This document shows, piece by piece, positions 2,995 to 35,309 of a stretch of DNA of 64,000 nt. This DNA is from Minisyncoccia bacterium. Its GTDB lineage: Bacteria; Patescibacteriota; Minisyncoccia; Phycocordibacterales; PALSA-1337. The stretch lies in NCBI GenBank assembly GCA_044228445.1, contig JBGAUV010000001.1, positions 143,827-207,826 of the forward strand. The letters run 5' to 3'. A program made the translations under genes and the position numbers. Under the pieces are notes generated by a model. That model had not been told where the DNA came from, searched no databases, and saw only the letters and a list, made by a program, of their open reading frames with translations. Positions within the stretch are counted from its first letter, which is position 1, and each line of letters opens with the position of its first letter.

Positions 2995-3039
2995 CAAAAA
3001 GACCGCCAGCACAATGTGCTTTGGCGGTTTTTCTTTTTA
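2995..3039 (+). terminator. Rho-independent terminator (copy 2; one mismatch versus 972..1012)
   Basis: aaagACCGCCAgcacaatgtgctTTGGCGGTttttcttttt immediately 3' of the ABC exporter. Confidence 0.6.
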
Positions 3040-3042: not shown

Positions 3043-3087
3043 TGTGCGCCTAGTTGGAATCGAACCAACGACCCACTCCTTAAAAGG
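3043..3087. repeat. attR-like 45-bp direct repeat, identical to the 3' portion of tRNA-Lys at 14087..14131
   Basis: tgtgcgcctagttggaatcgaaccaacgacccactccttaaaagg matches the tRNA-Lys gene from the acceptor 3' end through the anticodon stem; sequence diverges right after. Confidence 0.85.
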
Positions 3088-3266
3088 AAACAGCAATAGC
3101 TGTTTTCTTAGGAAACGCTTATATTATCTTGCTTAAATTAACTTTCGGTTGAAAAAGAGCGGACCTTTGAACGACCTGTTTTCCAAATTTATAAACTTTA
3201 GAAAACTATTCGTTTTTAGACTAATTAACTTGTAAAATGTCCGACTGACGTAGACATTATACCAAG

Positions 3267-4199
3267 CTATCCAAATGATAGCTTGTCTATATCTTCTCCC
3301 ATGGATTCAGTTCTCATGGAACGAATGTATTTCATTGTCATTAAAATACTGGTATGACCCAACAGTTTTTGTATCTTGAAGGCGCTTACATTGTTCTCGT
3401 CGAGTTTGCAGGCAAAAGTATGTCGAAACATGTGGAGGTGTAGTTTGACCCCCGACTTTTTTATAAGAGCATTTGTCCAGTGTTTTAAACCTTGACGGCT
3501 CAATCCCTTGTCTCCTTTGTTGGAGGCTATCAAACATTCCGTTCGTAAGCCGAGCGCCTCCCTTGCTTCAAAGTACTCCTGTATGTGTAAGAGTAGAGTG
3601 GGGTGAATTTTGAGCTTCCTAGTAATCTTGGATTTCGAGGTTTCTCCTCTTATCGTCATGACAGCTCTATCCTTGTTAAAATCAGAAACACGTAGAGATA
3701 TAAATTCACCCTTTCTTATTCCCAGAAATAATAAAAGACTCACCATCATAGTATCCCGTCGCCGGATAAATGAGTTACTCGATTTTAGTACGATTGCGCT
3801 ATAAATTTTTTGAATATCAGAATCTTCTATTTTTCGAAAATCATCATACTTTACGCTAGGTGGTCTTATGTCATTTAAAGGATTAACAGATATACAACCT
3901 TTTTTCTCTAGCCAATTAAAAAATACATTCAATTTACTCCACTGCGTTTTAATAGTTGAGTTCTTTACTCCTTTCTTTATTTTATTTTTTCCGACTATTC
4001 TCGTTCGAGTCTGGATTCGTTTGAAAAACTCTATAAGCATTTCGGTGCTTAAAAACTTAAGTGTAGAAATTTCTGGCATTATTTTTAAAAAGAGATTGAA
4101 TACAGCTCTATAACCCCTGAGCGTTTCAGGGCTTAGTCGTGTAGAGTATTGCATTACATCCTCAAACTCATTAAAGAGTTTTCGTAGATCATTCTCCAT
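3267..4199 (-). CDS. Tyrosine-type site-specific recombinase/integrase
   Basis: C-terminal catalytic region ...HLHMFRHTFACKL...LLGHTSILMTMKYIRS (R..H..R..Y); N-terminal SAM-like core-binding domain. Confidence 0.9.
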   Translation of the reverse strand: MENDLRKLFNEFEDVMQYSTRLSPETLRGYRAVFNLFLKIMPEISTLKFLSTEMLIEFFKRIQTRTRIVGKNKIKKGVKNSTIKTQWSKLNVFFNWLEKKGCISVNPLNDIRPPSVKYDDFRKIEDSDIQKIYSAIVLKSSNSFIRRRDTMMVSLLLFLGIRKGEFISLRVSDFNKDRAVMTIRGETSKSKITRKLKIHPTLLLHIQEYFEAREALGLRTECLIASNKGDKGLSRQGLKHWTNALIKKSGVKLHLHMFRHTFACKLDENNVSAFKIQKLLGHTSILMTMKYIRSMRTESMGEDIDKLSFG

Positions 4200-4705
4200 A
4201 ACAAATAGAAAAACTAGGTCGGGGCGGTTATTTAATTGTGCTTACCTAGTTAGAGAAACAGTGATGGTGAGAGATGGTGAGTGTGTGGCGTGCAATGATT
4301 GGGCAAACGACTATGATTATTTGTAATTATGGTCTATCTAATTTTTCCGTCAATTCTATTTTTAATTCGCATTCGCAGTTCTCGGCTTAACTAAGCGATC
4401 TTTTTAAAATCAACAATGTGGATAACCCTGTGGAGATTATAGTTTTTGAAGCCAAGAAACAAATTTTCCAATTGCAAGTAAAGGGATGACCTACGTCGAA
4501 TGGTCAATATTGTTTTTGACAGACTGCGTATCGCTCATTCATTGCAAGATAGCGCACCAACTAATTTTAACAAAATGCTTCAGTGGAATAATAAAGAAAT
4601 AAAGAAGTTCGTTATAATCTAATCCAGACTTTTTGAGATGCCGCTCGGTAATTTTTATGCTGACGAAAGGAAAAGGTTAGTAGCTATAAATCTACGACAA
4701 AATCT

Positions 4706-4745
4706 TACTTTTTTTCACGAAAAAAGCCGCCAAGCAGGGTTGCTG
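4706..4745 (-). terminator. Rho-independent terminator (minus strand) 3' of the tautomerase-like gene
   Basis: Minus-strand read GCCGCCtcgcagcaaccctgcttGGCGGCttttttcgtgaaaaaaa; marks the left edge of the GC-rich cassette. Confidence 0.55.
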
Positions 4746-4783
4746 CGAGGCGGCGTGATTTTGCGTTGATGAACATTGCGAGA

Positions 4784-5170
4784 CTACTTGAAGTCCTCGG
4801 TGGTCGGCTTGTGTCGCCGGCCCATTCGAGGGTTGGTCCAGAAGCCCTGCTTGGGATCGAAGGGGAACACGAAGCATTCGACCATTGCCTTCGGAAAGTG
4901 CTCCTTGAGCGTTTTCCCGAGGCGTTCGGCCAAACGATTGCGAACCTCTGCGGTCCGTTCCGGCTTTTTGAATAGGCCGGTCACTTCGATGATGATCTCG
5001 GTTCCAAGACCAAACTTCATCATGTCGGGCGGAAAGAGAACTGTCATCGAATGCTTGCCTTTTAGGCCAAGCTCGGGGACACCCTCAACGGCTTTGACGA
5101 TGCCTTCGAAGACCTGGTTGAGCTTACGCTCAGTGGACTTCGGAAGGCACCAAATTTTGATTATGGGCAT
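4784..5170 (-). CDS. Tautomerase-family protein (tandem 4-OT/MIF-like halves, Pro1)
   Basis: Begins MPIIKIW...; second half IIEVTGLFKKPERTAEVRNRLAERLGKTLKEHF resembles a 4-oxalocrotonate tautomerase unit; ~55% GC. Confidence 0.5.
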   Translation of the reverse strand: MPIIKIWCLPKSTERKLNQVFEGIVKAVEGVPELGLKGKHSMTVLFPPDMMKFGLGTEIIIEVTGLFKKPERTAEVRNRLAERLGKTLKEHFPKAMVECFVFPFDPKQGFWTNPRMGRRHKPTTEDFK

Positions 5171-5174
5171 GCGG

Positions 5175-6032
5175 TTATCCCTTTTCTTTTGTTGATGGTT
5201 GAGGTTTCTTTGCCAGCCACTGACTCAAGTACCACGCTCCGAAAAGCGAGATAGCAACGCCAGTCCACTGAACAAATGTGAGGTGTTCTCCGAGCATGAA
5301 GTATGCCCCGATGATGACCGCAGGAGTTTCCCCCTGAGCTAAGACACTGGCTTCAGTTATTCGAAGGTTCTCAAAGGCCAGCATGTTTGCTATCCAATAG
5401 AGAAAACCTCCGACGAACGCAAAGCCGAGAAGCAGAACTGTAAGCTTGGGAGTCATGGTGCTGATCAAGGGCGTATTAACGCTTAAGATCAGTCCAAGTG
5501 TTCCCATGCCAATCCCTGCAAAAAACCCTTTCTGCAAAGATGTAGTTTTCGCTTTTGCGAACAACTCGTACAGGACGCCGCTCATTACTGTTCCGAAAAC
5601 ACTCCAGACGAATCCTTCCCATTGGAAGAGTCCACCCTTGCGTGCAATCAGCACTCCGCCGAGCATAAGCACAAGGCCGATGATTGAAGCCTCTGAAATC
5701 TTTCGTCCCAGAAATAAACTGATGGCGAAATTAATAAGAGGTGTCGCGGTAATGATGATGATCGTGGGACCTGCGCCCCAATGCCGGATACCCTGGAAAA
5801 GTCCCAGCGTTGCAAATGGCAGCGTGATTGCGATCAGCCAGGTGTATTTGTCCACCTTGCCGATAACTCCACGGAGTCCAATGAATGCCGCGATGGTAGT
5901 CATGAATCCACGGAATATCATGAGTTGTTCCGGAGTGAACATGTGAAGGACGTTGACGAACGGGAGGGCGAGCCCTGCTGTAAGCCAAATCCCAACTACT
6001 CCGAAAAGACCGATAAAAGTCTTTGGTTTCAA
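5175..6032 (-). CDS. EamA/DMT-family transporter (10 TM, drug/metabolite exporter)
   Basis: Two internally repeated 5-TM halves with glycine-rich helices typical of EamA; GC-rich. Confidence 0.8.
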   Translation of the reverse strand: MKPKTFIGLFGVVGIWLTAGLALPFVNVLHMFTPEQLMIFRGFMTTIAAFIGLRGVIGKVDKYTWLIAITLPFATLGLFQGIRHWGAGPTIIIITATPLINFAISLFLGRKISEASIIGLVLMLGGVLIARKGGLFQWEGFVWSVFGTVMSGVLYELFAKAKTTSLQKGFFAGIGMGTLGLILSVNTPLISTMTPKLTVLLLGFAFVGGFLYWIANMLAFENLRITEASVLAQGETPAVIIGAYFMLGEHLTFVQWTGVAISLFGAWYLSQWLAKKPQPSTKEKG

Positions 6033-6182
6033 GGTGCACCCTCCTTTCTTGGTTAAGCTTTAAGTCAATGAACTGCTAACTCGACCAAAATACCATGGAT
6101 TATTGACTATGGCAAGTTTTTATGCTAGTTTAAGCACAGAATTTCTGAACGAAAAAACAATCAAAAACGAAAGGACTTTGTC

Positions 6183-8054
6183 ATGAAAAAACAGCATTGG
6201 ATCATCCCGCTTCTCTTGGTGGCATTCATCAGGGCGGAATTCACCACAGTCCAGGCCTACTCGGCTTGGGACCAGTCGCAGGTCACGTATGATGCCTCTC
6301 GGGGTGTTTACGTCGATCACTACAAAATCCCTTTGGACAATTTCATTGCAGCAGGTGCGGCCAGTAACCCTGACCAAGCCAAAGAAATCGCTGCAATGTA
6401 TAACGGTCCTCGGGACATTCCGGCGAAGCGAAAGCTCGTCGTGAAGTTTCGGACAGACGTGTTCCGTAAGGAAGAGAACTACGCATGCGCAAGTATGATG
6501 TTTCTCACCAAGCCTGTCTCGAAGCGTCGTCTCGTTCTCGTGAACGTCGAACAGACAATTAACGAGAATATCCCAACTGACGATCGTCAGTATCGGGCCT
6601 GGCCTCATCTCGGACTTCTCTTTGTGGGCACAGCTGCTCAAGAAGAAGGCTGGGAGGTAGTCATGTGGGACGAGCTCGTCAAAGGCTTCGCGCCGATGGA
6701 GCAGCTCGTTCAGCCAGGTGACGTTGTTGGTTTCAGTTGTGTTGTGACAGGAATGGAACGTAGCATTGAGTTGGCTCGGAAAGCAAAGGAACTTGATGCT
6801 CGGTATGTGATCGTGGGAAATGATTCCGCGATCTTCCGAGCAAACCAGATTCTAGCGCTGCCCGACAAGCCGGTTGATGTTGTGTTCACTTCGAATAGCC
6901 TCACGGCCATTCGGAGATTCTTCCGAGAGATTGAAAACGCAAATCTCGAATCGCTGCAAATTCCTGGTGTCCAAGTGACATTGGGGCAAGTGCCGCAATC
7001 GAATGAGCGTGATCGTCTCTTGGTGGATCTTTCCATTCGCAAGCGCGACAAAGCTGAAGGACGGTTTGAAAACGACGACGTGTTCGTTGTTCCGAAGCTC
7101 GATCTCTATCCGCACTGGAATGAGGTCTGGTCCAACTACCGCGCGACGTTCGGACACAAGCACAGTAATCCTGATACGGTGAAGAACGGCATGAGCCTCT
7201 TCGCCCAGGGTTGCACCCGAACTCGTGGAAGTGATGTTTGCAGCTACTGCACCATCTACGGCGTTGCGGACATCCGCATGCCACAGAGGGAATACCTTCG
7301 TCGGACCGCTGAGGCCTACAAAGCTTTCGGCATCGACATGGTGTTCAACGTAACTGACAGCGTCTACGAGATGGGCGGTGTGGCTAAAGCGCTCCAGGAG
7401 CTCGGTATTACCTGGAATGCAATGACCATCTACGGTCGATCGCAGGGAATAACTCAGAACCCAGGTCTTCTCGAACAATGGCAACGAGTCGCAACAGAGC
7501 GACTCCTCGTCAACGTTGGGATGGACTCGGGAGACGACAAACTTCTGCGAGAAGGAGTTGTGAAATCCTCGATCAACAGAAAGAGGACTCGCCTTGAGGA
7601 AAACCAAGAGGCGGTGCGACTCATCCGGCAAGCCGGTGCGCATCTTCACTACTCACTCATCTTCGGAACGCCCGGCGAGACATTGGAGACCTGCGAAAGC
7701 AGTATCCGGTTTCTCGAGTGGACGATTGCGACACTCGGTCACCAGTTGGACATCTGCGAAACAGACATCTACTGGCTTAACTTCGGGTCACCTGCAAGCA
7801 AGGTGTTCCATGACTATTCGGAAGCGCAGCGACTTGCTGCGATGGCCGGAAAGTCGATCTCCAGAGAGGAGTGGTACGAAAACTTCGCTCGTCACCAAGA
7901 GGCACTCGTCGTGCCCGAGGCGACGGAAGAAGCCTGGTACCGCCACTTCACGAAGATCGATCTTGCGACTGCGCAGGCTTATAACCAGCGTTGCGTCGAG
8001 ATCATGGCTCGCCATAACGGCAGCATTCGAGGTCGTGCGTACAAGCCGATCTAA
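6183..8054 (+). CDS. B12-binding-domain radical-SAM-like enzyme with atypical cysteine motif and a signal-peptide-like N-terminus
   Basis: PHLGLLFVGTAAQEEGWEVVMWDE...GFSCVVTGMERSIELARKAKELDARYVIVGNDSA resembles the cobalamin-binding domain of class B rSAMs; cysteine cluster is C-x8-C-x2-C (GCTRTRGSDVCSYC) instead of CxxxCxxC; N-terminus MKKQHWIIPLLLVAFIRAEFTTVQA/YS looks like a Sec signal; ~55% GC. Confidence 0.5.
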   Translation: MKKQHWIIPLLLVAFIRAEFTTVQAYSAWDQSQVTYDASRGVYVDHYKIPLDNFIAAGAASNPDQAKEIAAMYNGPRDIPAKRKLVVKFRTDVFRKEENYACASMMFLTKPVSKRRLVLVNVEQTINENIPTDDRQYRAWPHLGLLFVGTAAQEEGWEVVMWDELVKGFAPMEQLVQPGDVVGFSCVVTGMERSIELARKAKELDARYVIVGNDSAIFRANQILALPDKPVDVVFTSNSLTAIRRFFREIENANLESLQIPGVQVTLGQVPQSNERDRLLVDLSIRKRDKAEGRFENDDVFVVPKLDLYPHWNEVWSNYRATFGHKHSNPDTVKNGMSLFAQGCTRTRGSDVCSYCTIYGVADIRMPQREYLRRTAEAYKAFGIDMVFNVTDSVYEMGGVAKALQELGITWNAMTIYGRSQGITQNPGLLEQWQRVATERLLVNVGMDSGDDKLLREGVVKSSINRKRTRLEENQEAVRLIRQAGAHLHYSLIFGTPGETLETCESSIRFLEWTIATLGHQLDICETDIYWLNFGSPASKVFHDYSEAQRLAAMAGKSISREEWYENFARHQEALVVPEATEEAWYRHFTKIDLATAQAYNQRCVEIMARHNGSIRGRAYKPI

Positions 8055-8077
8055 TCCATCAGTTCTTTAACTCAAAC

Positions 8078-8117
8078 ACAGTACTCCGCGAGGTGATCCC
8101 TCTCGGAGTATTTTTTC
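8078..8117 (+). terminator. Rho-independent terminator 3' of the rSAM-like gene
   Basis: tACTCCGcgaggtgatccctctCGGAGTAttttttctt; marks the right edge of the GC-rich cassette. Confidence 0.6.
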
Positions 8118-8639
8118 TTAAGCTTGTCATGCACGGTGTGACTATACAGTCTCGGGGAAAGAAGTGGGTGAGAAACTCGATATTAATCTTAGTTTCTCCT
8201 TTACACCCGTCATATACTCCAGATCTGTGAAATGACCATAATCTATTTTCCTGTTTTCTTAACTTCGTAACCATTGTGAATGGCCACTTTAGTTGTTCCT
8301 CCAATACCCAACCATGTTCCGACTATCAGTATAGCTAGACCACCTACGATTGAGATCATAAGTTCGCTCATGTGCAGGATTATAGAGGAAAGGAAATACA
8401 AGGGTACTGGTAAATATGTAAAATACATTGTATTATTTTAGAACAATTAAATATAGAAGTAGCCTAACCCCCCAAGCAATTGGCGGCATGGCGAAGAAGT
8501 CCTATCGAGCACAGAAACCCGTCACGGGTCGCTTGATAGGCCGTATAGGGAAACTTATACGAGAGGCTTCGAGCCTCTACCGTGGCGGATTTCTGTTCAC
8601 GCCTCGGATTACAAGCCCTATCAAGCTAAAAATATCAAT

Positions 8640-8876
8640 ATGTTTGGAAAAGATTTTGTGTGCCTCAATTGTGGTACTGTGGGGAAGCGTAAGTTGCAGG
8701 TAAGGGGTAATTTAGTATTAGAAATACTGCTTTGGTTCTTCTTTCTTATTCCAGGTATTATTTATTCAATATGGCGCCACGCCTCTACTAAACAGATATG
8801 CAAAGCTTGTGGTAGTCTTAATATGGTTCCAGTCGATTCTCCGAAAGGACAAGAGGTGGTGAAGAAAAATAAATAA
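8640..8876 (+). CDS. Zinc-ribbon membrane protein (two CxxC pairs flanking one TM helix)
   Basis: CLNCG...TM(LVLEILLWFFFLIPGIIYSIW)...CKACGS; stop abuts the thermonuclease start. Confidence 0.4.
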   Translation: MFGKDFVCLNCGTVGKRKLQVRGNLVLEILLWFFFLIPGIIYSIWRHASTKQICKACGSLNMVPVDSPKGQEVVKKNK

Positions 8877-8877
8877 C

Positions 8878-9738
8878 ATGAAAAAACTATTTTTGTTTGG
8901 GGCGAGTAGCGTCTTTGTCCTTTTTCTTACTGTACTTTTCTTTTCCTCGACACCTACGGAACAGGGGATTAAGGCACTGGAGAGTAAGTCTACACTTGTA
9001 AGCGAAGCGACAATTCCTTCCGTTGCACCAATTGCAGAAGGTCCGAAGGTTTATTCTGTGGTAAGTGTAATTGATGGTGATACTTTGAAAATAAGTATGA
9101 ATGGTAAAGAGGAGACTCTTCGTCTGATCGGTATTGATACCCCGGAGACAGTTGATCCACGAAAGACGGTGCAGTGTTTTGGAAAAGAAGCATCAAACAA
9201 AGCAAAGGAGTTGCTGGTCGGTAAGAGGGTTCGCATTGAAGTTGATCCTACACAAGGGGAACGAGATAAGTATGATCGTCTGCTCGTTTACATTCATCGT
9301 GAGGATGGGCTTTTTTACAACAAACATATGATCGAGCAGGGATATGCTCATGAGTATACTTACAACACCCCCTACATATATCAAGCTGAATTCAAAGCTG
9401 CTCAAGCTAGAGCTCGTACGAACCAGAAAGGACTATGGTCTCCAGCAACCTGTAATGGAGATACAACATCTAGCCCGATTGTTTTGACTCCTCCGCCCAC
9501 ACAAAGCCCCGCGGTAGCCCCTACACCTGCACCTACAGTATCACCTGTTCAAGAGCCTGCATCTGCTCCTCAATCAGTGGGGAAGTATTACACTTCTTCT
9601 TACGGCAGTTCCAAATACTACTACCCAGAAGCGTGTGGTGGTTGGAAAAGTCTCTCGCCGAAGTATTTAAAATCCTTTGACTCGCTAGAGGCGTTACTCG
9701 CCACATATTCGCGAACAAAAAGCCCTCAGTGTCAGTAG
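8878..9738 (+). CDS. Secreted/membrane-anchored thermonuclease (staphylococcal nuclease fold) with Pro-rich linker and C-terminal Cys-containing Ada-like metal-binding motif
   Basis: N-terminal TM/signal; SNase motifs VIDGDT and RLIGIDTPE; C-terminus KYYYPEAC...FDSLEALLATYSRTKSPQC. Confidence 0.85.
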   Translation: MKKLFLFGASSVFVLFLTVLFFSSTPTEQGIKALESKSTLVSEATIPSVAPIAEGPKVYSVVSVIDGDTLKISMNGKEETLRLIGIDTPETVDPRKTVQCFGKEASNKAKELLVGKRVRIEVDPTQGERDKYDRLLVYIHREDGLFYNKHMIEQGYAHEYTYNTPYIYQAEFKAAQARARTNQKGLWSPATCNGDTTSSPIVLTPPPTQSPAVAPTPAPTVSPVQEPASAPQSVGKYYTSSYGSSKYYYPEACGGWKSLSPKYLKSFDSLEALLATYSRTKSPQCQ

Positions 9739-9898
9739 GGCAGTATTCAGGATATTTCTGACCCATTAGTTTCTTTGTGAAGTCTTCATTCTGAAATAAC
9801 GCGCTTCGCATCCTGGATTCCCGAGTCTTTTAAAAAGATGACCCTTGAATTCCAGATTTAAGGACCATTCACGCAGGTGTGTGACCCTTTCTGGTTAC

Positions 9899-10417
9899 CT
9901 AGATTGGATCAGGTTCGTGTATTTTTCCCTGAACTCTTTCTCTCGCTTCTTCAAATGATTTGTTGTCAGTGGGAGGAGAGTATCGGACGATATCGTTATA
10001 TCGATCATGTATGTGTCTTGTCGCAGTTTCGAGTTCTTTATCGGTCATTGCTTTCGAAAACGTATCTCTAAGAGACCTTACATCCTGTTTGAGAGTCGTA
10101 AAATTCTTTGCGGCATTCAAGTGATCGTAATATTCCTTGAGTGGATTTAGTACGCTACCAACTGCGGCGACGACCGCAGAGATGACGCCTAGCCAAACGA
10201 CCCATTCAGGTGCATCTTTTATTCCAATATATGTACCAGATACAGCAGCAATAACAGCCGGAATCGTCTGGAATCTTGTGAGTCGTCGTCGTTGTTTATC
10301 CGCGATGACATGATGAGTTTCAGCAGTATAAACGCAATTTTGATATATCACCTCGCATTCTTCTGTGTATGTTTCTTTCATGATAGTGGAATTAATTCTC
10401 CGAATATTTTTCTCCAC
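9899..10417 (-). CDS. 2TM effector with SLATT-like architecture (predicted membrane-disrupting partner of the SMODS cyclase)
   Basis: Soluble N-terminal region, two adjacent TM helices (IPAVIAAVSGTYIGI / WVVWLGVISAVVAAVGSVL) and a conserved C-terminal helix; overlaps the upstream cyclase gene by 40 nt in an operon. Confidence 0.55.
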   Translation of the reverse strand: MEKNIRRINSTIMKETYTEECEVIYQNCVYTAETHHVIADKQRRRLTRFQTIPAVIAAVSGTYIGIKDAPEWVVWLGVISAVVAAVGSVLNPLKEYYDHLNAAKNFTTLKQDVRSLRDTFSKAMTDKELETATRHIHDRYNDIVRYSPPTDNKSFEEARERVQGKIHEPDPI

Positions 10418-11304
10418 GCTAGGTGTTTTCCCGCATCGGTTGAGGCGGTAAGAGCGTCACGACTATGGTATTTCAAATATTCCAATGCTTGTAAAACCTC
10501 TAGTTTTGTTGCAAGGTCTATTCGAATTACCGGAGAATTACTCCCTGGGATTGAGAGGTGATTATCCAGATAAGATTCGATATTGTGGATGAATCCAGCC
10601 ACAATTGCAGGGTACGTCACAAGTATAGCGTTCTTTTTGCAGCCTGCAATGATCTCGGGTACGAGCTTCGTGGCCATTATTTCAATTGGGAATGACTTGA
10701 GAGAAGGGAAGTATTCTCGCCGGATTGCCTTCATCATTTTTATTACTGGAGTAAGAATTCCACCCGTTTGGTTATTTACAGCCGAAATGTATTCGGCGTC
10801 ATGATCGTAGTCAGCCAATTCCCATGTTCCAAGGCTGTTTGGTATCCAGTAACCTCTACCTTTCGGACTATGAATAATTCCGTTTGGAGAATGTCCAATA
10901 TTATCGATGTATGCAGGTACAATTTCTACTTTGACGTTATTTGCATATTCGAAAGTGACGGTGGGGTGATCTTGTTGTGGTGACATGGCACCGTACCGTT
11001 CGCTTTCTCGCACGATTGAATGAACATGATCCATCGCCATTTGAGCGGTAACACCGCCTGGACCCCAACGATCAAATTGACCGAGTACAACCAGGATATC
11101 AATATCGAAAGCGTCGTCTTCTCGTGGCTGTATTCTCGTCTTTCGATAGTTGTGGAGAGAACCAATCAATTTGGTGTCTTTGATGTTTTGACCATTATTT
11201 TCAATAACGCCCCTGACAGCGTTGTGCTGCCGTGATATGGTTTCACTAAACGTGTCGGTCAGTTCAAGATTCGCTTTCAGTTTTAAAAAGGTATCAGTGA
11301 TCAT
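10378..11304 (-). CDS. SMODS/CD-NTase-like nucleotidyltransferase (cyclic oligonucleotide synthase, CBASS-type)
   Basis: Pol-beta NTase signature G-S-x14-D-x-D: LIGSLHNYRKTRIQPREDDAFDIDILVV; ~300 aa single domain; directly followed by the 2TM effector. Confidence 0.7.
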   Translation of the reverse strand: MITDTFLKLKANLELTDTFSETISRQHNAVRGVIENNGQNIKDTKLIGSLHNYRKTRIQPREDDAFDIDILVVLGQFDRWGPGGVTAQMAMDHVHSIVRESERYGAMSPQQDHPTVTFEYANNVKVEIVPAYIDNIGHSPNGIIHSPKGRGYWIPNSLGTWELADYDHDAEYISAVNNQTGGILTPVIKMMKAIRREYFPSLKSFPIEIMATKLVPEIIAGCKKNAILVTYPAIVAGFIHNIESYLDNHLSIPGSNSPVIRIDLATKLEVLQALEYLKYHSRDALTASTDAGKHLAWRKIFGELIPLS

Positions 11305-11305
11305 T

Positions 11306-11578
11306 TTAGAGGTAGTTTTTTAACCAAGTTACAGTATCGGAATCGATACTCTTCGTAGCCCAATCGCATTTTGTGATGTCAATTGCAATAAGCTTGTCAT
11401 TTGTATCTAAATGAAGCTTGGCCGCATCTCGCACTTGTCCGGCGGTGTAGGAGGTTTTTAAAAGCCAGACAGATTCGACGGGTCTTGCATAGCCACTATA
11501 GGTTTTAAGATGCTTCCATAGTTCGGAGTAGTCCTTTCCGGGCTTTCGAAGATCGTATGATATGAGTATTGTGTTCAT
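11306..11578 (-). CDS. Small alpha/beta protein with Cas2/VapD-like sequence pattern; first gene of the SMODS operon
   Basis: ILISYDLRKPGKDYSELWKHLKTYSGYARPVESVWLL follows the YD[IL]..(K/R)..L..yG.R...SV[FW] pattern of Cas2-fold proteins; stop is 2 nt before the cyclase start. Confidence 0.3.
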   Translation of the reverse strand: MNTILISYDLRKPGKDYSELWKHLKTYSGYARPVESVWLLKTSYTAGQVRDAAKLHLDTNDKLIAIDITKCDWATKSIDSDTVTWLKNYL

Positions 11579-11708
11579 GTGTTATGATTTGGTGAATAAA
11601 TAATCAAAGGGTGAGGTTCCCAACTGGGAAGATTACTCTCTGTTGAATATAGTTTATCAAAATGATTAATAATTTGTCAAATCACTTTGAAAAAGGTATG
11701 ATATCTAC

Positions 11709-12050
11709 ATGAAAAATGAATCAAATAAGGCTTCCTCAATAGGAGGGCAAATTAGACAGGCGCGCGAAGAAATGAATATGTCGCAATTGGACTTGGCTAA
11801 GGCGACAGGATTTGAGTCAGCCACTGCCATTTCTCTCATGGAAAGCGATCAGAGAAAAGTGACAATCGATACTTTACAGAAACTCGGGGATGTTCTTCAT
11901 AAAGATATAAAATATTTTCTTGGGGCAGAAGAAAAGCCAACAGTGACTACCGAGTTTGCGTTAAGAGCAGATCCTCATCTAAACAAAGAAGACAAAGAGG
12001 CACTTCTTCATCTTATTGATTTGGCTAAGAAGCGTAAAAATGGAAAATAA
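11709..12050 (+). CDS. XRE-family HTH transcriptional regulator (ImmR-like)
   Basis: IRQAREEMNMSQLDLAKATGFESATAISLMESDQRKVTIDTLQKLGDVL is a Cro/C1-type HTH. Confidence 0.8.
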   Translation: MKNESNKASSIGGQIRQAREEMNMSQLDLAKATGFESATAISLMESDQRKVTIDTLQKLGDVLHKDIKYFLGAEEKPTVTTEFALRADPHLNKEDKEALLHLIDLAKKRKNGK

Positions 12051-12540
12051 CATTGATGACCTCGGTCCTCGTAAAAAATTCGCAAAAGGTCTCGCAGAGA
12101 AGCTTTTAAAAGATGTTGGAATTACGGAAGTTCCTGTTTCGTTGCAGATAGTAATAGAGTATCTTCAAACCCAGTATGACCTCGATGTGCGAAAAGTCTC
12201 GTTGAGTAATGCCGTCTCCGGATTACTAGTAACTTGTAGAGACGTCGATGGAGAATATTCCACGATCATTTTTAATGAAAATCATCCTTGGTGCAGGAAG
12301 AGATTTACGATTGCACATGAAATTGGTCACCTATTGATGGGTCATACTTGTAATAAAAATGATCCCACAGCCACTTATAATGAAAAGGAAGCAAATTGCT
12401 TTGCGGCGGAACTTCTCGTGCCATGTAAGATTTTAAAAAAGACCTTTAAAACTGTCACTAAAATTCCTGACCTATCAAAACTTTTTAGGGTTAGTGCTGA
12501 AACGATGGGATATCGAATAATGGAATGTCGTCTAATTTAA
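12040..12540 (+). CDS. ImmA/IrrE-family metallopeptidase (COG2856; anti-repressor protease)
   Basis: HEIGHLLMGH (HExxH) and downstream EANCFAAELLVP; start chosen at internal ATG (MENNIDD) overlapping the XRE gene by 11 nt. Confidence 0.75.
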   Translation: MENNIDDLGPRKKFAKGLAEKLLKDVGITEVPVSLQIVIEYLQTQYDLDVRKVSLSNAVSGLLVTCRDVDGEYSTIIFNENHPWCRKRFTIAHEIGHLLMGHTCNKNDPTATYNEKEANCFAAELLVPCKILKKTFKTVTKIPDLSKLFRVSAETMGYRIMECRLI

Positions 12541-12542
12541 AG

Positions 12543-13043
12543 TTAATCAGTAGAGATAATCTTAGGCATCAGTCTCGCCCATTTTTTCGTACTGCTCTCT
12601 TTTGATGCTGGAATCATCATTAGCTCAGGCTTTTCAAAACTAGTTGATTCTTCTATAAAAAATAAAGCCGAGTCCCATTTCATAATGGTATTTGCTGCTG
12701 CAATTCGTTCGCTTTGTGTGGTGGAGCGGACCTCACCGAAGCTGGTTATCTGCTTTCCTTTGACTATATCAACCAATTCATCCGTAAGAAGGCGGTGGCG
12801 CTCCCTAAGTGCAGTCAAGCGTGCCTCCCTTGTCTGTCTACCCACTAATTCAATATTTTCTTTTCGAACTTTGGATACGAGACGTGAGACATAGTGCCAA
12901 TCAAGAGTACCACCATTTACATTTCTATATCCCACAAGGTAGAGCTGAACCCGTAGTTTTTGGACCGAGATAAGTGGATGAAGAGCCAACTCATCTCTTA
13001 TTGTACTTTTTATTCCGTCTTCTACTTCTGGTTGTTTTCTCAT
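12543..13043 (-). CDS. Hypothetical protein (island cargo, immediately downstream of the integrase gene, overlapping it by 4 nt)
   Basis: ORF only; no recognisable motif. Confidence 0.3.
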   Translation of the reverse strand: MRKQPEVEDGIKSTIRDELALHPLISVQKLRVQLYLVGYRNVNGGTLDWHYVSRLVSKVRKENIELVGRQTREARLTALRERHRLLTDELVDIVKGKQITSFGEVRSTTQSERIAAANTIMKWDSALFFIEESTSFEKPELMMIPASKESSTKKWARLMPKIISTD

Positions 13044-13969
13044 TTAAGTTCGTGGTTATTCGCGGTTATTAATGGCGTAATGTCGTTGAGAGGGTGCTTT
13101 ACCATCTGCGACCTCAGGTGTTCTGCACTTGCTGCCAAGTAGATCGTTGTAGTCTTTATATCACTATGACCCATCATTTTTGAGAGGGAATAGATGTCAC
13201 AGCCTCCTTCGAGCATTAAGGTGGCGAAGGTGTGTCGTAGCTTATGAACGCTGAACGCTGTCCCTGAAGCCTGCCGCATCTGCGCCACCAGTCTTTTTAA
13301 ACCATTTGCAGTGAATCCTGTATCTCTTCGAAGGGAAGAAAAGAATTCTGGATTTACTTTATTGAGTCTCTTTCTTTCCTCCACGTACTTCTTCAGACTT
13401 TGAGCAAGGGTGTAGCTTATTGGCACGATCCGGTCTTTCGCTCCTTTGCCTTGCCTCACAAAGAGAGTGAGATTGTCCAGATCGATATCTGTATATTTTA
13501 AATTCAAGAGTTCCTGCTTACGGAGACCAGCAAAAATGAAGGTTGCGAATATGGCGTGGTTTCTATAGCGAAGGAATTTATACTCATAGGGGTAGTTATA
13601 GACTATCTCGAGAAGCCTGAGAGTGCTTTGCTGTGAGAGTTTGGGAGGTAACCGTTTCTCCATCTTTGGTTTTTCAATATTCAAGATGGGATTTTTCTCC
13701 ATGTAGCCTTGCTTTACGCACCAGCGAAAGAAAACTAGAAGTGATTTGTGGTAGACGATATAAGTATTTACAGTCCACTTCCGCTCTGTACGGCCGCGAT
13801 AAAATAAAGCTCGTATATTCTCTTCATTCACATCATTTAAATTCGTGATTCCTGAAAACTTACTGAAGCACCTCGTTACATATCTGTATCTCCGTATGGT
13901 GTCTTTGGAATAACCTCGGATTGATAGGGAGTAGTCACAGAATTTCTGCGACAAAATTTCAATATCCAT
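13040..13969 (-). CDS. Tyrosine-type site-specific recombinase/integrase (tRNA-proximal)
   Basis: ...HKLRHTFATLMLEGGCDIYSLSKMMGHSDIKTTTIYL... (R..H..R..Y); 5' end lies 118 bp from the tRNA-Lys 3' end. Confidence 0.9.
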   Translation of the reverse strand: MDIEILSQKFCDYSLSIRGYSKDTIRRYRYVTRCFSKFSGITNLNDVNEENIRALFYRGRTERKWTVNTYIVYHKSLLVFFRWCVKQGYMEKNPILNIEKPKMEKRLPPKLSQQSTLRLLEIVYNYPYEYKFLRYRNHAIFATFIFAGLRKQELLNLKYTDIDLDNLTLFVRQGKGAKDRIVPISYTLAQSLKKYVEERKRLNKVNPEFFSSLRRDTGFTANGLKRLVAQMRQASGTAFSVHKLRHTFATLMLEGGCDIYSLSKMMGHSDIKTTTIYLAASAEHLRSQMVKHPLNDITPLITANNHELK

Positions 13970-14087
13970 GTTTTTTCTCGACGAATACTTATCCCCAGTT
14001 TATTTTGACCCTACGGCCTGTTCACCGCAGGAGGTGGTCGTTCAAAATCTCTCTTTTTCCGAATCAGCCCTAGAAATATAACGAATG

Positions 14088-14160
14088 TGCGCCTAGTTGG
14101 AATCGAACCAACGACCCACTCCTTAAAAGGGAGATGCTCTACCAACTGAGCTATAGGCGC
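14088..14160 (-). tRNA. tRNA-Lys (anticodon UUU)
   Basis: Reverse complement GCGCCTATAGCTCAGTTGGTAGAGCATCTCCCTTTTAAGGAGTGGGTCGTTGGTTCGATTCCAACTAGGCGCA; anticodon loop CUUUUAA; good acceptor/D/T arms. Confidence 0.9.
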
Positions 14161-14336
14161 ATTTAATTTACTTACTAACTTTAAACCATACTACCATAGT
14201 TTGTTCTGGTCCTACCAAAACAGCTATAGGCGCATTTATTTATTTGTAAAAATACAATTTAACTTCTATAACCGTCGCTTGTCTACCAAAACAGCTACAG
14301 GCGCATTGAAACACAACAAAAAAGAATATACCTTTT

Positions 14337-20199: not shown

Positions 20200-21009
20200 A
20201 TGAAAAATAATTTTTTATCAGTATCTGTTCTTTTTTGGATTATAATCGGGTCAGTTTTATGGAATTTACTTTACAACGACTCTTTTAAAGGAATTCTGGA
20301 TTCGGAGCATATACTTTATTTTATATTGATTTGTCTCGCTACTTATACTCTAGGAACTATAATGTATTTACAGCTAACAAAAAAATATAAGAACGTTGTT
20401 ATTGATATTAAAAATAGTGATAAAAGAACTTATTATGAAAGTAAAACACAATACTATTTTGTTTCGATAATAGCTTTTGTTGTTTTTTCTGCACTCTCTT
20501 TATTTAATATTAAAGGATTAAGCAGTGTTTCCATTTACTTTGTTGGTGTAAGTTTATTAGCTTTGGTATTAGTTTATTTCTACAGAACTTCTTCTTTTAT
20601 TCTTAGTCAGGATAAGTTTATATGGAAAAAAGGTTTTACAAAAATAGAGTGTCCTTGGTCTGATGTTATAGCTATTCATCATGATATTGAACCTAGTTTG
20701 GTAAATGCCGGTAGAAAGTTTAAATCATCTTCATTTTTTATAGAAACAAAACAAGGTTTTACTGGATATGCTGATCTCACAAATATAAAAGTAAAAGGAT
20801 ATTTTACTTTATTAAATCAAGGTAATAAATTAATTGAAGAGATAAAATTAAAATCAGGTTCTTTAGAAAAAGCCGGTGATATTTCAATGTTTAAGCAAAC
20901 AAAAAAACTTAAAGATTTAGTTCTATTATTACTTGGCATTTTTCTTATTCCTGTAGTTATAGTAACTATGTATTCATTCTTTACTGGTTTCAATTTATTT
21001 AATTTTTAA
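20200..21009 (+). CDS. Hypothetical membrane protein
   Basis: Multiple TM segments; no motif. Confidence 0.4.
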   Translation: MKNNFLSVSVLFWIIIGSVLWNLLYNDSFKGILDSEHILYFILICLATYTLGTIMYLQLTKKYKNVVIDIKNSDKRTYYESKTQYYFVSIIAFVVFSALSLFNIKGLSSVSIYFVGVSLLALVLVYFYRTSSFILSQDKFIWKKGFTKIECPWSDVIAIHHDIEPSLVNAGRKFKSSSFFIETKQGFTGYADLTNIKVKGYFTLLNQGNKLIEEIKLKSGSLEKAGDISMFKQTKKLKDLVLLLLGIFLIPVVIVTMYSFFTGFNLFNF

Positions 21010-21014
21010 TTAAT

Positions 21015-30878: not shown

Positions 30879-30953
30879 GGTGGCTATAGTTTAGTGGTAA
30901 AACCTCGGTCTGTGGATCCGAAGTTGTGGGTTCGATTCCCACTAGCCACCCCA
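30879..30953 (+). tRNA. tRNA-His (anticodon GUG) with extra 5' G
   Basis: GGTGGCTATAGTTTAGTGGTAAAACCTCGGTCTGTGGATCCGAAGTTGTGGGTTCGATTCCCACTAGCCACCCCA. Confidence 0.8.
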
Positions 30954-32531: not shown

Positions 32532-32599
32532 AAGTGGGTAATGTTAATTAATAAAGGATGTTGCTGTATTAGCTTCTTCGTGGGCTAATTGCAAGTCCT

Positions 32600-33958
32600 T
32601 TAAAAGGGAACATCGTCGGCTTTTATCTCATCTTCAGCTTTTGCAATCTCTACCCCCGACTCGTACGCACTATTTATTTTTTCAGTTTGCTCAAGCTTTC
32701 TAATGGCTGTCGTAGGGTATGTCAGGAGTTGTCGGCGATCATTCGGGTCCGGCTCTTGAAAGATAAGGCCAGCTGATTCGATGTTTGGTAGATAATCATA
32801 ACGAAGTCTGAACATGCCCAGATTGCCACCATAGACGTGAGCGTATTGTTTGAGCATGTCTTGTCGACTTACACCGACTTTCTTTTCTTCGGGTACAGGA
32901 TCACCGAATTCATCAACTTGGTCCCGATTCCACAGAGGCATAATAATCTGCTGGTAGAACTCGTAGAGATAAGGAGAGATTTCAAGCTCTTGAAAGAGTG
33001 ATATCTTGTCCCAAATTTCAAAACCGGTATCAATATCAAGTTCGGAAGCATACACCGTTGAACCTTCACGCTTACGATGCCAAACATTGAGAAGGGTGAC
33101 GGACTTTATGATGGAATAAATACGTTTGATATCGCGTTGATTTCTCGGTTGCGGATTTTTAATGTGAGCCAGGAATCTGTCTTGGACCATTTTCTCATTT
33201 TCAATAATGATCTCATCGATACCTTCTGCTTTGATTGCTTGTATACGTTTTATAAGAGCCTTACGGAGAGGGTTCTCGTTTAGCTCTTTGTAGTTCTTTT
33301 TGTCTGACTCTTTACGAGAAGATTGATGAATACCGGCAAAGATTTTCTCCTGATTTATTTCAGGGCTAAGAAGTAGGAAACGAGTCATTTCTTGTTGGTC
33401 CATTTTGGCATTGGCTGAGCAGAATATGACAGAAGGGAAACCTCTTACAACAGCCGTCTTTGTTTTGGTCCCACCTTTTTGAGTTTTGTCGGTGATTTTG
33501 TGTCTTGTTTCTTTCTCGTCGTGAGATAGAAGCGATCGAAGTTTTGTTAAGAGAGTTGAGTGGGGCATATCAAGGAAAATGATGATCTTTCTTGATAGGT
33601 CGATGAAGTGTTCGTTCGTCTCTTTTTTGTATACGCCAGTCTCATGCAGAAATGAAGTTGGTGATGCACCGGCTAGCTTCATTACATCCTCTTGAGGAAA
33701 GAGGTGAGATATCTCGAGAGGGATGAAGCTTTTTCCTGAAGATGAGGGTGCGTTAAAACTGATATTGAATTGCGCGTTGTCGGTGTATGCCGCAAGCATG
33801 GCAAGAAACGTGATGATTTTATTACCGTCATCTTTTTTGATAGTAAGGTCCAGCACTTCCCGGACCTGATCGAGAGTGATAGGTTCTGGTGGAGTAATGC
33901 GATCCTTAATTTTGTTGAGTTCCTCGTTGATTGTAAGTGACTCTAGGTTCTGATTCAT
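32600..33958 (-). CDS. P-loop NTPase, putative element replication (primase/helicase-like) protein
   Basis: Walker A FNAPSSSGKSF; size and context as for plasmid/phage D5/P4-type primase-helicases; family not resolved. Confidence 0.4.
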   Translation of the reverse strand: MNQNLESLTINEELNKIKDRITPPEPITLDQVREVLDLTIKKDDGNKIITFLAMLAAYTDNAQFNISFNAPSSSGKSFIPLEISHLFPQEDVMKLAGASPTSFLHETGVYKKETNEHFIDLSRKIIIFLDMPHSTLLTKLRSLLSHDEKETRHKITDKTQKGGTKTKTAVVRGFPSVIFCSANAKMDQQEMTRFLLLSPEINQEKIFAGIHQSSRKESDKKNYKELNENPLRKALIKRIQAIKAEGIDEIIIENEKMVQDRFLAHIKNPQPRNQRDIKRIYSIIKSVTLLNVWHRKREGSTVYASELDIDTGFEIWDKISLFQELEISPYLYEFYQQIIMPLWNRDQVDEFGDPVPEEKKVGVSRQDMLKQYAHVYGGNLGMFRLRYDYLPNIESAGLIFQEPDPNDRRQLLTYPTTAIRKLEQTEKINSAYESGVEIAKAEDEIKADDVPF

Positions 33959-34172: not shown

Positions 34173-34174
34173 GG

Positions 34175-35302: not shown

Positions 35303-35309
35303 ATTGTTT

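Follow-up and report, generated by a model that had tools for sequence, protein, structure and literature searches.

The GC-rich block at positions 4700-8120 of the window (the whole stretch of 64,000 nucleotides that was analyzed) is accessory cargo of an integrated island: a mosaic of three genes that are each self-contained, having a ribosome-binding site and a terminator of their own. The genes come from GC-richer Patescibacteria and belong to no conserved pathway. The large gene encodes a member of a compact, unnamed family occurring almost only in Patescibacteria, in which, at the level of family and fold, a cobalamin-type Rossmann domain is fused to a radical SAM barrel. The account that best explains the data as a whole, and which we consider probable, is that this mosaic carries a class B radical SAM enzyme that works in the cytoplasm, probably as a methylase, with a tethered N-terminus and with neighboring genes whose products act independently of it. 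The features are listed in Table 1.

Table 1. Coordinates of the features of the island and its GC-rich block
Feature	Position	Strand	Remarks
Distal att repeat, copy of tRNA-Lys 3' half	3043..3087	.	45 nt, D2, 100% identical to 14086-14130; far island end
Tyrosine recombinase (integrase 1)	3267..4199	-	PF00589 1.5e-24 and N-terminal SAM-like domain; GC3 0.37; just inside distal end
Intrinsic terminator of EamA/tautomerase-like unit	4720..4754	-	Hairpin 4726-4754, T-run 4720-4725; dG -20.7 kcal/mol, z -2.65
128-aa tautomerase-superfamily-fold protein (predicted)	4784..5170	-	Two beta-alpha-beta units, Pro after start Met; autonomous unit 4720-5200
285-aa EamA/DMT-family permease	5175..6032	-	PF00892 37.1 bits (cutoff 28.2); 4 nt upstream of tautomerase-like gene, same strand
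Divergent intergenic region	6033..6182	.	150 bp; ribosome-binding site GAAAGGA 7 nt before radical SAM ATG
623-aa class B (B12-domain) radical SAM enzyme, unnamed Patescibacteria family	6183..8054	+	Profile, motif, and fold evidence
Codons for C344-x8-C353-x2-C356, presumed ligands of SAM-binding [4Fe-4S] cluster	7212..7250	+	Invariant in 25/25 aligned members
Codon for C504, fourth invariant Cys	7692..7694	+	Five residues after FGxPGET; invariant column in alignment A1
Intrinsic terminator of radical SAM gene	8080..8117	+	Hairpin 8080-8112, then T-run; dG -18.9, z -4.35; 0/200 shuffles fold as well
Tyrosine recombinase (integrase 2)	13040..13969	-	PF00589 6.7e-30; adjoins tRNA-Lys end
tRNA-Lys(UUU) and proximal att repeat	14086..14160	-	tRNA 14087-14160 (ARAGORN, Rfam); 3' half 14086-14130 = repeat D2

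Island and gene organization

The ~11-kb island (3043-14130) is integrated in the tRNA-Lys gene of a tiny Patescibacteria (CPR) genome of ~30% GC, whose backbone MurE has its named relatives in Pacebacteria and Patescibacteria. A perfect 45-nt direct repeat (D2) bounds it, with two integrases just inside its ends, and this duplicated tRNA-Lys 3' half and the integrases support the island setting of the cassette. The other cargo (SMODS with SLATT, XRE with ImmA, and SNase) is typical accessory or defence content. Duplication of the tRNA 3' half, adjacent tyrosine recombinases, and atypical composition are common to this and other tRNA-targeting integrative islands, and the radical SAM and small genes resemble phage 'morons', as each is equipped with a ribosome-binding site and a terminator, signals at which its DNA similarity to other copies ends. 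The island differs from these systems in carrying a recombinase at each end. No phage genes were present in it, and the three gene families did not occur on IMG/VR viral contigs. An empty-site relative of the island was not found; the sequence of locus L095 stops at window position 15318.

The divergent arrangement of the three genes around the 150-bp intergenic region, recognized in the preliminary description of this DNA, was confirmed to the nucleotide, and both terminators said to bracket the cassette are real hairpin and T-run structures as judged by folding energy. A near-identical terminator follows the homologous small gene in L061, and a hairpin with a T-run stands at the position matching the radical SAM terminator in L099 and L003, the stem sequence being different in the window. 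A generic terminator pattern scan alone returned sites no more numerous than in shuffles. In the intergenic region, GAAAGGA and ~25 nt upstream of it are kept in L099, L003, and L006, while promoter-like matches were no commoner than in shuffles.

The 285-aa product was correctly described as an EamA permease, with PF00892 above its cutoff. For the 128-aa product, Pfam and NCBIfam tautomerase models gave no match even at E up to 10; its tautomerase-like character was supported at the fold level by Foldseek searches with the AF2 model (pLDDT 88.7), which retrieved fused 4-OT, Cg10062, cis-CaaD, MSAD, and MIF (E ~5e-6, TM 0.56-0.66). The protein, for which ~90 homologues were collected, shares with this superfamily (fused 4-OT, cis-CaaD/Cg10062, MSAD, and MIF) a single chain with two beta-alpha-beta units in tandem and the Pro after Met. 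It differs in its identity of 12-22%, in the replacement of Pro in 3/23 aligned members of its family (in one further, later-starting member, Pro is missing), and in invariant residues of its own (E33, D49, and G54). The protein as modeled has a tautomerase-superfamily fold.

Probable independent acquisition of the three genes

The three genes look like separate acquisitions rather than parts of one pathway. They had been proposed to form a coherent modification and export module, which the gene neighborhoods of their homologues do not support. The small gene was absent from 47 radical SAM loci (L001-L046 and L099) and from 32 other EamA loci, and an EamA gene of this family lay next to the radical SAM gene in just one other locus (L011), which corresponds to 1/32 other EamA loci and 1/~41 other radical SAM loci. 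The orientation also differs, being divergent in the window and convergent in L011. Of the EamA relatives, those with 61-85% identity were located in 31 metagenome loci, none of which had either of the other two block genes nearby. The radical SAM copy with 94% identity (L099) follows SecY and PemK, and those with 86% (L003) and 91% (L006) have other neighbors; over the sequence covered, all three lack a match to the EamA285 family or to the small gene, although the L006 sequence breaks off within the radical SAM gene.

At the DNA level, resemblance to other genomes was likewise limited to single genes. At 90% nucleotide identity, the similarity of the radical SAM gene ends ~20 nt from the gene ends, and positions 4720-5200 are 85-91% identical to L060, L061, and L062, whose flanks are unrelated. 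A similarity search for conserved neighbors, suggested in the preliminary description, retrieved the block genes among unrelated neighbors, the DNA similarity stopping where each gene stops. Unbiased clustering of neighboring genes revealed no operon partner conserved across the radical SAM family, the sole recurrent neighbor being a TrmB-like gene (13/41 loci).

We therefore regard it as unlikely that the genes were acquired as one module, in which a small molecule would be modified by the radical SAM enzyme and then processed by the tautomerase-fold protein, with the EamA permease exporting the product or importing a precursor. Such a module would fit the tight layout (only 4 nt separate the EamA and small genes, which lie on the same strand and share a terminator, and 150 bp separate them from the radical SAM gene that they face) and the composition of the three genes, which resemble one another but not the rest of the island. 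It would also fit the EamA copy of the same family (52% identical) that adjoins the radical SAM gene in L011, where both are GC-rich, a different EamA gene 3 kb from the 86% radical SAM copy in L003, and an EamA fragment close to the small-gene copy with 98% identity in L060.

Two radical SAM-EamA adjacencies among ~40 loci are more than expected from random gene placement, and an occasional functional link may exist.

The radical SAM enzyme and its cluster motif

The 623-aa protein comprises a hydrophobic segment (residues 6-17), an N-terminal module extending to ~110, a Rossmann domain (~116-330), a radical SAM barrel (~335-530), and a helical C-terminal domain. When the profile searches were carried out, PF04055 was above its cutoff, with the match beginning at residue 341 (model position 4), and PF02310 fell just under its cutoff. 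The Rossmann stretch quoted earlier and GCTRTRGSDVCSYC are both present in the translation, and the class B-type motifs TDS, GMDSG, and FGxPGET were seen in alignment A1. No named NCBIfam family came near its cutoff (best HpnR, 45.6 bits vs 650), sequence-level searches matched the protein to no solved structure, and the ~100-residue N-terminal module had no Pfam match. This module sets the Patescibacteria family apart, as does the steep fall in score from >580 bits (full-length members) to <150 bits. Compared with class B enzymes of solved structure (TsrM, MgmA, CysS, TokK, and AprD4, the last with a B12-like domain), identity is only 12-18%, the N-terminal hydrophobic segment and module are additional, the cluster motif is CX8CX2C instead of CX3CX2C, and cobalamin use is predicted.

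The protein differs from the methylthiotransferases RimO and MiaB: a conserved N-terminal Rossmann-like Cys triad for an auxiliary cluster is lacking, the only invariant cysteines being 344, 353, 356, and 504, and the protein had no match to the TRAM domain.

The non-canonical C-x8-C-x2-C motif noted previously is real (C344, C353, and C356) and conserved, being present in 40/41 loci; in the structure model, it lies in a loop between the strand 335-338 and the helix 369-382. Its reading as an anomaly was not upheld. CX6-9CX2C dominates among the nearest ~500-aa relatives (CX6 in 43, CX8 in 40, CX7 in 15, CX9 in 10, and CX3 in 9) and is also found in B12 radical SAM methyltransferases that have been characterised. 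Extended spacing is also shared with uncharacterised clusters in the RadicalSAM.org paper, where CX4-11CX2C motifs include CX8CX2C, CX7CX2C, and CX9CX2C. Across 48-94% identity, neither the three cluster cysteines nor the SAM-type motifs vary, which indicates that radical SAM chemistry is under selection.

We infer that a [4Fe-4S] cluster is held by C344, C353, and C356, whose loop exceeds the usual length by five residues; the cluster would cleave SAM reductively to yield a 5'-deoxyadenosyl radical. Most class B enzymes methylate unactivated carbon; on this base rate, the same reaction would be the most likely one here, with cobalamin bound in the Rossmann domain. The enzyme would work in the cytoplasm, its hydrophobic segment and ~100-residue module serving as an optional, uncleaved tether to the membrane or a partner, and the EamA permease and the tautomerase-fold protein would most likely act independently of it.

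A more specific assignment is decidedly unlikely, namely a C-methyltransferase like PoyC or MpcB that modifies RiPPs or proteins, with a ribosomal peptide or a protein as its substrate. PoyC and MpcB are class B radical SAM enzymes reported as RiPP C-methyltransferases and, like the query, have an extended loop between the first two cluster cysteines, although with a spacing of 7 (CX7CX2C) rather than 8. TIGR03975 (RiPP C-methyltransferase) was the top NCBIfam match for some outgroup proteins (e.g., P0353, 86.9 bits), and the protein methylase MgmA was a top structural match of the 623-aa protein. The match of the query to TIGR03975, however, was weak (17 bits vs a cutoff of 282), in 42 loci neither a conserved small ORF nor a precursor-like sequence adjoined the gene, and recurrent RiPP-type partner genes were absent. 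Unlike PoyC and MpcB, the query has no adjoining precursor peptide gene or biosynthetic cluster.

Composition and origin

Foreign composition and horizontal acquisition of the block were borne out by its separation from the host in GC, GC3, and tetranucleotide usage. The GC content of 4700-8120 is 51.4%, and the ~55% given earlier is reached only at 500-nt peaks (55-56%). The backbone has 30.4% and the remainder of the island 40.7%; the excess of 20-25 points claimed over both therefore holds for the host (~21) and not for the rest of the island (~11). The composition of the window is non-uniform: among all 606 windows of 3.4 kb in the 64 kb, the one with the highest GC starts at 4701 (z-score of the block 3.4, with non-overlapping windows as the reference). 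In tetranucleotide usage, the block had a correlation of -0.08 with the backbone, where the rest of the island reached 0.89 and backbone controls 0.98, and the GC3 values of the three block genes were 0.71, 0.53, and 0.61, compared with 0.12-0.17 for backbone genes.

The three genes are similar to each other in composition and differ from the remainder of the island.

A high-GC donor outside the host lineage was not supported; all three families sit in Patescibacteria-type contigs and are mostly GC-richer than their flanks. As the radical SAM gene exceeded its flanks in GC in 37/42 loci, part of the GC excess may be a trait of the gene family rather than of recent transfer. Its GC3 was above the mean of its neighbors in 34/39 loci and the highest of all in 19, and the EamA and small genes showed a similar tendency. 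It is nevertheless very unlikely that high GC is simply an intrinsic, selected property of these families and the gene a long-standing resident. The excess in the window is extreme (GC3 of 0.61 vs 0.15 in the host), the tetranucleotide profile is uncorrelated with that of the host, att repeats bound the island that carries the gene, and copies at 90% nucleotide identity stand in unrelated contexts with similarity stopping at the gene ends.

N-terminal hydrophobic segment

The N-terminus MKKQHWIIPLLLVAFIRAEFTTVQAYS is translated, with the GAAAGGA site and the first codons conserved in the DNA of L099, L003, and L006. Its hydrophobic segment appears to be an accessory tether rather than a signal for secretion. 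Because short natural forms without the N-terminal module exist (7/41 loci), the segment and the module appear to be optional. Radical SAM chemistry requires cytoplasmic SAM and reductant. That the protein is exported by Sec, cleaved, and active outside the cytoplasm as something other than a working radical SAM enzyme is scarcely credible: two lysines, an 11-13-residue hydrophobic core, and V-Q-A/Y-S in the window, a strongly hydrophobic 11-residue stretch in 95/97 long forms, and a lipobox-like LVLGC in one member (P0045) would suit export, but the cluster cysteines and SAM-type motifs are invariant, no twin-arginine motif is present, what is conserved after the segment across the family is [RK]-x-[ED]...P-x-[WY] and not an AXA-type cleavage site, residues 16-24 are modeled as a beta strand of the N-terminal domain, and the short forms lack the segment entirely. 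The cleavable Sec signal proposed in the preliminary description is accordingly improbable. The layout of the segment in the window is nonetheless that of a signal peptide (n-h-c), with the -3/-1 rule met (V-Q-A/Y), which counts against a tether.

Composition and gene layout of the block

The horizontal acquisition of the block genes and the enzyme class of the radical SAM protein were supported by the analysis, its unusual cysteine motif was explained, and a three-gene pathway was unsupported. The compositional anomaly of the block is real and sharply bounded. Its GC content (51.4% in window 4700-8120, with 500-nt peaks of 55-56%) compares with 30.4% in the backbone and 40.7% in the rest of the island; the 20-25 GC points over the host proposed in the preliminary description were therefore confirmed, but the same excess over the rest of the island was reduced to only ~11 points. 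The highest-GC window of 606 overlapping 3.4-kb windows starts at 4701, and the block GC lies 3.4 sd above all non-overlapping windows. The tetranucleotide scan was likewise far from uniform, as the correlation with the backbone was -0.08 for the block, 0.89 for the rest of the island, and 0.98 for backbone controls. GC3 fell into three tiers, with 0.12-0.17 for backbone genes, 0.35-0.48 for other island genes, and 0.71, 0.53, and 0.61 for the block genes. GC, GC3, tetranucleotides, and the island setting all support the horizontal acquisition of these genes.

The gene coordinates agreed with the divergent three-gene arrangement around a 150-bp spacer that was first described, and the bracketing terminators are real. 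As a generic promoter and terminator pattern scan of the window yielded counts not above shuffles, the terminator calls are based on folding energy and on a position kept in homologous loci. Integron-like cassettes were considered and rejected; by eye, the bracketing hairpins lacked attC-type core sites, and they act like ordinary terminators.

Features of the window (window positions)
Feature	Position	Strand	Details
43-nt direct repeat	971-1013; 2997-3039		98% identical
ABC transporter gene	1118-2983
45-nt direct repeat	3043-3087; 14086-14130		45/45 nt identical
Tyrosine recombinase	3267-4199		just inside one island end; PF00589
Terminator	hairpin 4726-4754 + T-run	-	dG -20.7, z -2.65
Small gene	4784-5170	-	128-aa protein
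EamA gene	5175-6032	-	285-aa protein
Radical SAM gene	6183-8054	+	623-aa protein
Terminator	hairpin 8080-8112 + T-run	+	dG -18.9, z -4.35
LOOT RNA	8461-8578	+	Rfam RF03000, 76 bits vs cutoff 46.4, E 1e-14
SLATT_4 two-TM effector	9899-10417	-	pair spans 9899-11304
SMODS nucleotidyltransferase	10378-11304	-	40-nt overlap with SLATT_4
XRE-family HTH and ImmA/IrrE genes	11709-12540	+	Peptidase_M78, HEIGH motif
Tyrosine recombinase	13040-13969		just inside other island end; PF00589
30-nt copies	14139-14168; 14212-14241; 14283-14312		77-100% identical
ORF of strain-level indel	20200-21009		269 aa
tRNA-His	30880-30953
Large serine recombinase	30942-32531	-
Heavy-metal P-type ATPase	36132-38411
tRNA-Thr(UGU)	60272-60366	+	95 nt; ARAGORN call

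Island and host

The copy of the 45-nt repeat at 14086-14130 lies in tRNA-Lys(UUU), of which the repeat copies the 3' half, and this perfect match identifies the block as cargo of an ~11-kb integrative island. In line with tRNA integration, direct repeats of a tRNA 3' end and a recombinase adjoining the att site were found. The further cargo consists of an SNase nuclease and two gene pairs, one for a SMODS nucleotidyltransferase and a SLATT effector, the other for an XRE repressor and an ImmA/IrrE protease. The overlapping SMODS and SLATT_4 genes form a CBASS-like, signalling-type defence pair. The XRE gene overlaps the ImmA/IrrE gene, and the two represent the usual repressor/antirepressor pair of mobile elements, which may control the island.

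The island also carries a full-length LOOT RNA, which separates the radical SAM terminator from a small zinc-ribbon/TM ORF that precedes the SNase gene; a search of 10 related loci did not retrieve it. To our knowledge, earlier descriptions of the LOOT motif come only from metagenomes whose source organisms were unknown, and here it lies in a Patescibacteria island.

Just outside the distal att repeat, the ABC transporter gene is flanked by the 43-nt repeat, whose sequence folds as a strong terminator hairpin (dG -19.6, z -6.0), as if this gene, too, had been inserted or duplicated as a unit. On the backbone side, a 30-nt stretch (the tRNA-Lys 5' end and adjoining sequence) occurs in three copies ~72 nt apart, outward from tRNA-Lys; they may be what is left of tRNA-like sequences arranged in tandem at the integration hotspot.

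The named relatives of the backbone MurE are Pacebacteria and Patescibacteria, and by such sequence affinities the host is assigned to the Patescibacteria. In the search for an empty island site, a contig 94-96% identical to the backbone (L095) was found to stop at window position 15318, short of tRNA-Lys. It lacks the ~800 bp at window 20218-21013, a small strain-level backbone indel.

Class and fold of the radical SAM protein

The preliminary description of the 623-aa protein as a B12-type radical SAM enzyme was supported both by profile and by fold. PF04055 scored 32.9 bits against a cutoff of 29.5, with residues 341-511 covering model positions 4-166 of 166, and PF02310 fell just short (27.8 vs 32.1 bits); a PF02310 match was precomputed for several homologues, and the B12 region of the HpnR model matched the protein at 3.6e-12. 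The structure model was confident (pLDDT 86.2, pTM 0.77) and has the partial TIM-barrel fold common to solved radical SAM enzymes. Foldseek aligned it with TsrM, AprD4, MgmA, and CysS (E 4e-16 to 9e-10, ~500 aligned columns, 13-16% identity), and, as regards a putative N-terminal cobalamin-binding Rossmann domain, the fold matched TsrM, MgmA, CysS, and TokK. Sequence and predicted fold thus support a class B-type radical SAM enzyme.

Named class B families (HpnR, HpnJ, BchE, PhpK, TsrM-type, RiPP C-methyltransferase, AprD4, KedN5, and others) did not reach their NCBIfam cutoffs; all eleven matches were far below, the best being HpnR with 45.6 bits vs 650. The sequence-profile search of solved structures returned nothing significant (best radical SAM matches E 0.3-0.5), and the N- and C-terminal modules searched separately had no Pfam match. 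A methylthiotransferase was rejected; unlike MiaB and RimO, whose N-terminal domain carries a cysteine triad for an auxiliary cluster and whose C-terminus is a TRAM domain, the protein has no invariant cysteine before residue 344 and no TRAM or UPF0004 Pfam match. The only invariant cysteines of the family are 344, 353, 356, and 504.

The canonical radical SAM motif, CX3CX2C at the start of the barrel, binds a [4Fe-4S] cluster. As previously noted, this spacing is absent from the protein, which presents three candidate ligands as CX8CX2C. The motif C344-x8-C353-x2-C356 was invariant in 25/25 aligned members and was present in 40/41 loci, the exception being the most divergent locus, L044, with CX6. 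It occupies the canonical site, the beta1/alpha1 loop between strand 335-338 and helix 369-382, and the Pfam match starts with residue 341 on model position 4. Extended loops are also known beyond this family; in the 150 best-scoring representatives, CX6 (43), CX8 (40), CX7 (15), and CX9 (10) were all more frequent than CX3 (9). The ten outgroup proteins of ~500 aa that were scanned matched models for BchE, HpnJ, and RiPP C-methyltransferases, with scores that stayed far under the cutoffs. RadicalSAM.org lists CX4-11CX2C variants, CX8CX2C included, in uncharacterised clusters (PMC9477430), and PoyC and MpcB were reported as B12 radical SAM C-methyltransferases with CX7CX2C (PMC11285071; bioRxiv 10.1101/2024.01.23.576971). 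Given these extended motifs in relatives and reported methyltransferases, CX8CX2C is unusual yet fully compatible with radical SAM chemistry, so that the non-canonical motif stands as an observation and no longer as an anomaly.

N-terminal module of the radical SAM protein

The N-terminus had been read as a cleavable Sec signal, which was difficult to reconcile with a cytoplasmic radical enzyme. The start codon is secure, with GAAAGGA 7 nt upstream and the first codons kept with synonymous changes in L099, L003, and L006. The signal-like n-h-c layout is present, and the family shares the hydrophobic segment (Kyte-Doolittle mean >= 2.0 over 11 residues in 95/97 long forms). Cleavage itself is improbable; what is conserved downstream of the segment is [RK]-x-[ED]...P-x-[WY] and not an AXA-type (small-x-small) site. 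Residues 16-24 were modelled as a strand of a small N-terminal domain (pLDDT 70-81). From the alignments and the model, we infer that the enzyme is cytoplasmic and that its N-terminal module is optional, stays uncleaved, and serves as a tether or binds a partner; a tether probably resolves the secretion paradox.

Short forms without the whole N-terminal module occur in 7/41 loci. A TrmB-like gene lies directly upstream on the opposite strand, at a distance of 73-190 nt, in seven loci (L029, L031, L032, L036, L039, L044, and L045), and all of these but L036 encode short forms without the hydrophobic module. The TrmB-linked short forms may represent a regulated, soluble sub-type of the enzyme.

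Tautomerase-like and EamA proteins

The assignment of the 128-aa protein as Pro1 tautomerase-like was borne out by its fold and by the proline after the start methionine, but not by a curated sequence model, as no match was obtained in Pfam at E up to 10 or in NCBIfam at E up to 0.1. The structure model was confident (pLDDT 88.7), with a strand-helix-strand unit repeated twice, and corresponded to the fused double beta-alpha-beta fold of the tautomerase superfamily (fused 4-OT, Cg10062/cis-CaaD, MSAD, and MIF; E ~5e-6, TM 0.56-0.66). More than 100 PDB entries matched at E <= 1e-3, almost all from this superfamily. The proline (MPIIK in the window) was found in 19 of the 23 members aligned; three others have L, A, or I in its place, and the remaining one starts later and lacks it. 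A group I intron (RF00028, 56.9 bits) was found at L061 2087-2378, ~4 kb from the tautomerase-like gene of that Patescibacteria-type contig.

The 285-aa protein was recognized as an EamA/DMT permease, as previously described, by PF00892 (37.1 vs 28.2 bits, residues 146-270); two repeats are expected, of which a single one scored by itself. Its relatives, the EamA285-family genes, lay within ~800 nt of tRNA genes in three of five loci scanned (L064, L074, and L076), and in almost every one of the 31 loci the GC content of the EamA gene was above that of its flanks (0.55 vs 0.32 in L066).

Possible gene-by-gene exchange and the proposed three-gene module

Copies of the radical SAM gene were found in unrelated contexts. 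A 94%-identical copy (L099) follows genes for ribosomal protein L15, SecY, and a PemK toxin, an 86%-identical copy (L003) lies between NUDIX and peptidase M28 genes, and further copies adjoin S20/RuvA or HrcA-GrpE-DnaK genes. The gene was GC-richer than its flanks in 37/42 loci (mean excess of 6.7 points), and its GC3 exceeded the neighbours' mean in 34/39 loci and ranked first in 19. A GC excess over the surroundings was likewise seen for the EamA and small genes. This GC excess across families, together with the near-identical copies in unrelated contexts, suggests that Patescibacteria have repeatedly exchanged individual genes, with GC-richer lineages as the source. At the DNA level, similarity to other genomes was restricted to single genes, with window 4720-5200 being 85-91% identical to L060, L061, and L062 and window 6164-8075 being 90% identical to L099. 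The small-gene unit and the radical SAM unit each have their own ribosome-binding site and terminator. The search of IMG/VR viral contigs for a phage vehicle returned none of the three families.

That the three genes constitute one acquired functional module, as proposed for modification and export of a small molecule, is improbable. When 572 neighbouring ORFs from 41 loci were clustered, no partner was conserved family-wide; the only recurring neighbour was the TrmB-like regulator (13/41 loci), which is absent from the window. No radical SAM or EamA locus contained the small gene, which occurred in three other contexts, one adjoining transposase and UmuCD-type genes, while 31 loci with 61-85% identical EamA relatives contained neither partner gene. 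In favor of the module, the radical SAM and EamA285 genes are adjacent elsewhere in L011 only, where they are convergent, 58% and 52% identical to the window genes, and GC-rich (GC3 0.62 and 0.65, between genes of 0.28-0.30). Finding two adjacencies in ~40 loci is more than random placement would predict, and the radical SAM and EamA genes may occasionally be linked, but the module was not supported, as the adjacency did not recur in several independent genomes. Gene-by-gene exchange within the Patescibacteria, suggested by three unrelated genes occurring as GC-rich self-contained units in unrelated contexts, is accompanied here by a caution for annotation; tight spacing and a shared odd composition in an island did not point to a pathway.

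Distribution and possible function of the radical SAM family

A word-indexed search yielded 190 matches, nearly all unnamed, full-length proteins of 47-94% identity from Parcubacteria/Paceibacteria, Microgenomates, Berkelbacteria, Buchananbacteria, and similar MAGs. The genome scan found 41 family loci with a like distribution, a few bearing the recorded labels Gammaproteobacteria or Kapaibacterium. In the exhaustive profile search of 1.84 billion representatives, only 29 were obtained at E < 1e-30, and the scores dropped from > 580 bits for full-length members to < 150 bits. By these sequence searches, the family is compact, unnamed, and almost confined to Patescibacteria, and our literature search found no paper on it in Patescibacteria or CPR.

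Patescibacteria are abundant, very small bacteria that depend on hosts, and few of their own enzymes are known. With its invariant extended motif, its unique N-terminal module, and a fourth cysteine that is likewise invariant, the family is a well-defined target for enzyme discovery, and a cobalamin-type radical SAM family in these bacteria would imply a need for scavenged cobalamin. Going by the base rate among class B enzymes, our best guess for its activity is cobalamin-dependent C-methylation, possibly at the membrane. No recurrent small ORF that could encode a precursor peptide was retrieved by tblastx of the 600-nt flanks.

A more specific proposal, which we regard as unlikely, is that the family consists of cobalamin radical SAM enzymes that are specific to this lineage, are tethered to the membrane, and remodel a hydrophobic component of the Patescibacteria envelope, the gene being passed between Patescibacteria as a single self-contained unit, sometimes with a DMT permease. 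Patescibacteria are unable to make lipids themselves, and the enzyme may, for example, methylate or cross-link lipids scavenged from hosts. Weak hints are the conserved N-terminal hydrophobic segment, a distant resemblance to class B families that act on lipids (HpnR, HpnJ, and ladderane), and the strong conservation, at 48-65% identity, across Patescibacteria lineages.

Two radical SAM neighbourhoods contain lipid-related genes, each a weak envelope hint: a fatty-acid desaturase gene two genes away (L001 8552-9421) and a cyclopropane-fatty-acid-synthase-type methyltransferase gene 4.4 kb away (L004 12240-13397). These are single cases without a pattern and the only such hints among the neighbourhoods.

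Other features of the window

A second island-like region of ~40% GC extends over window 30880-40000, where the large serine recombinase gene abuts tRNA-His and is followed by the heavy-metal P-type ATPase gene. A further patch of ~46% GC lies at 46-48 kb. The tRNA-Thr(UGU) scored below the gathering score of the Rfam tRNA model and may contain an intron or be atypical.
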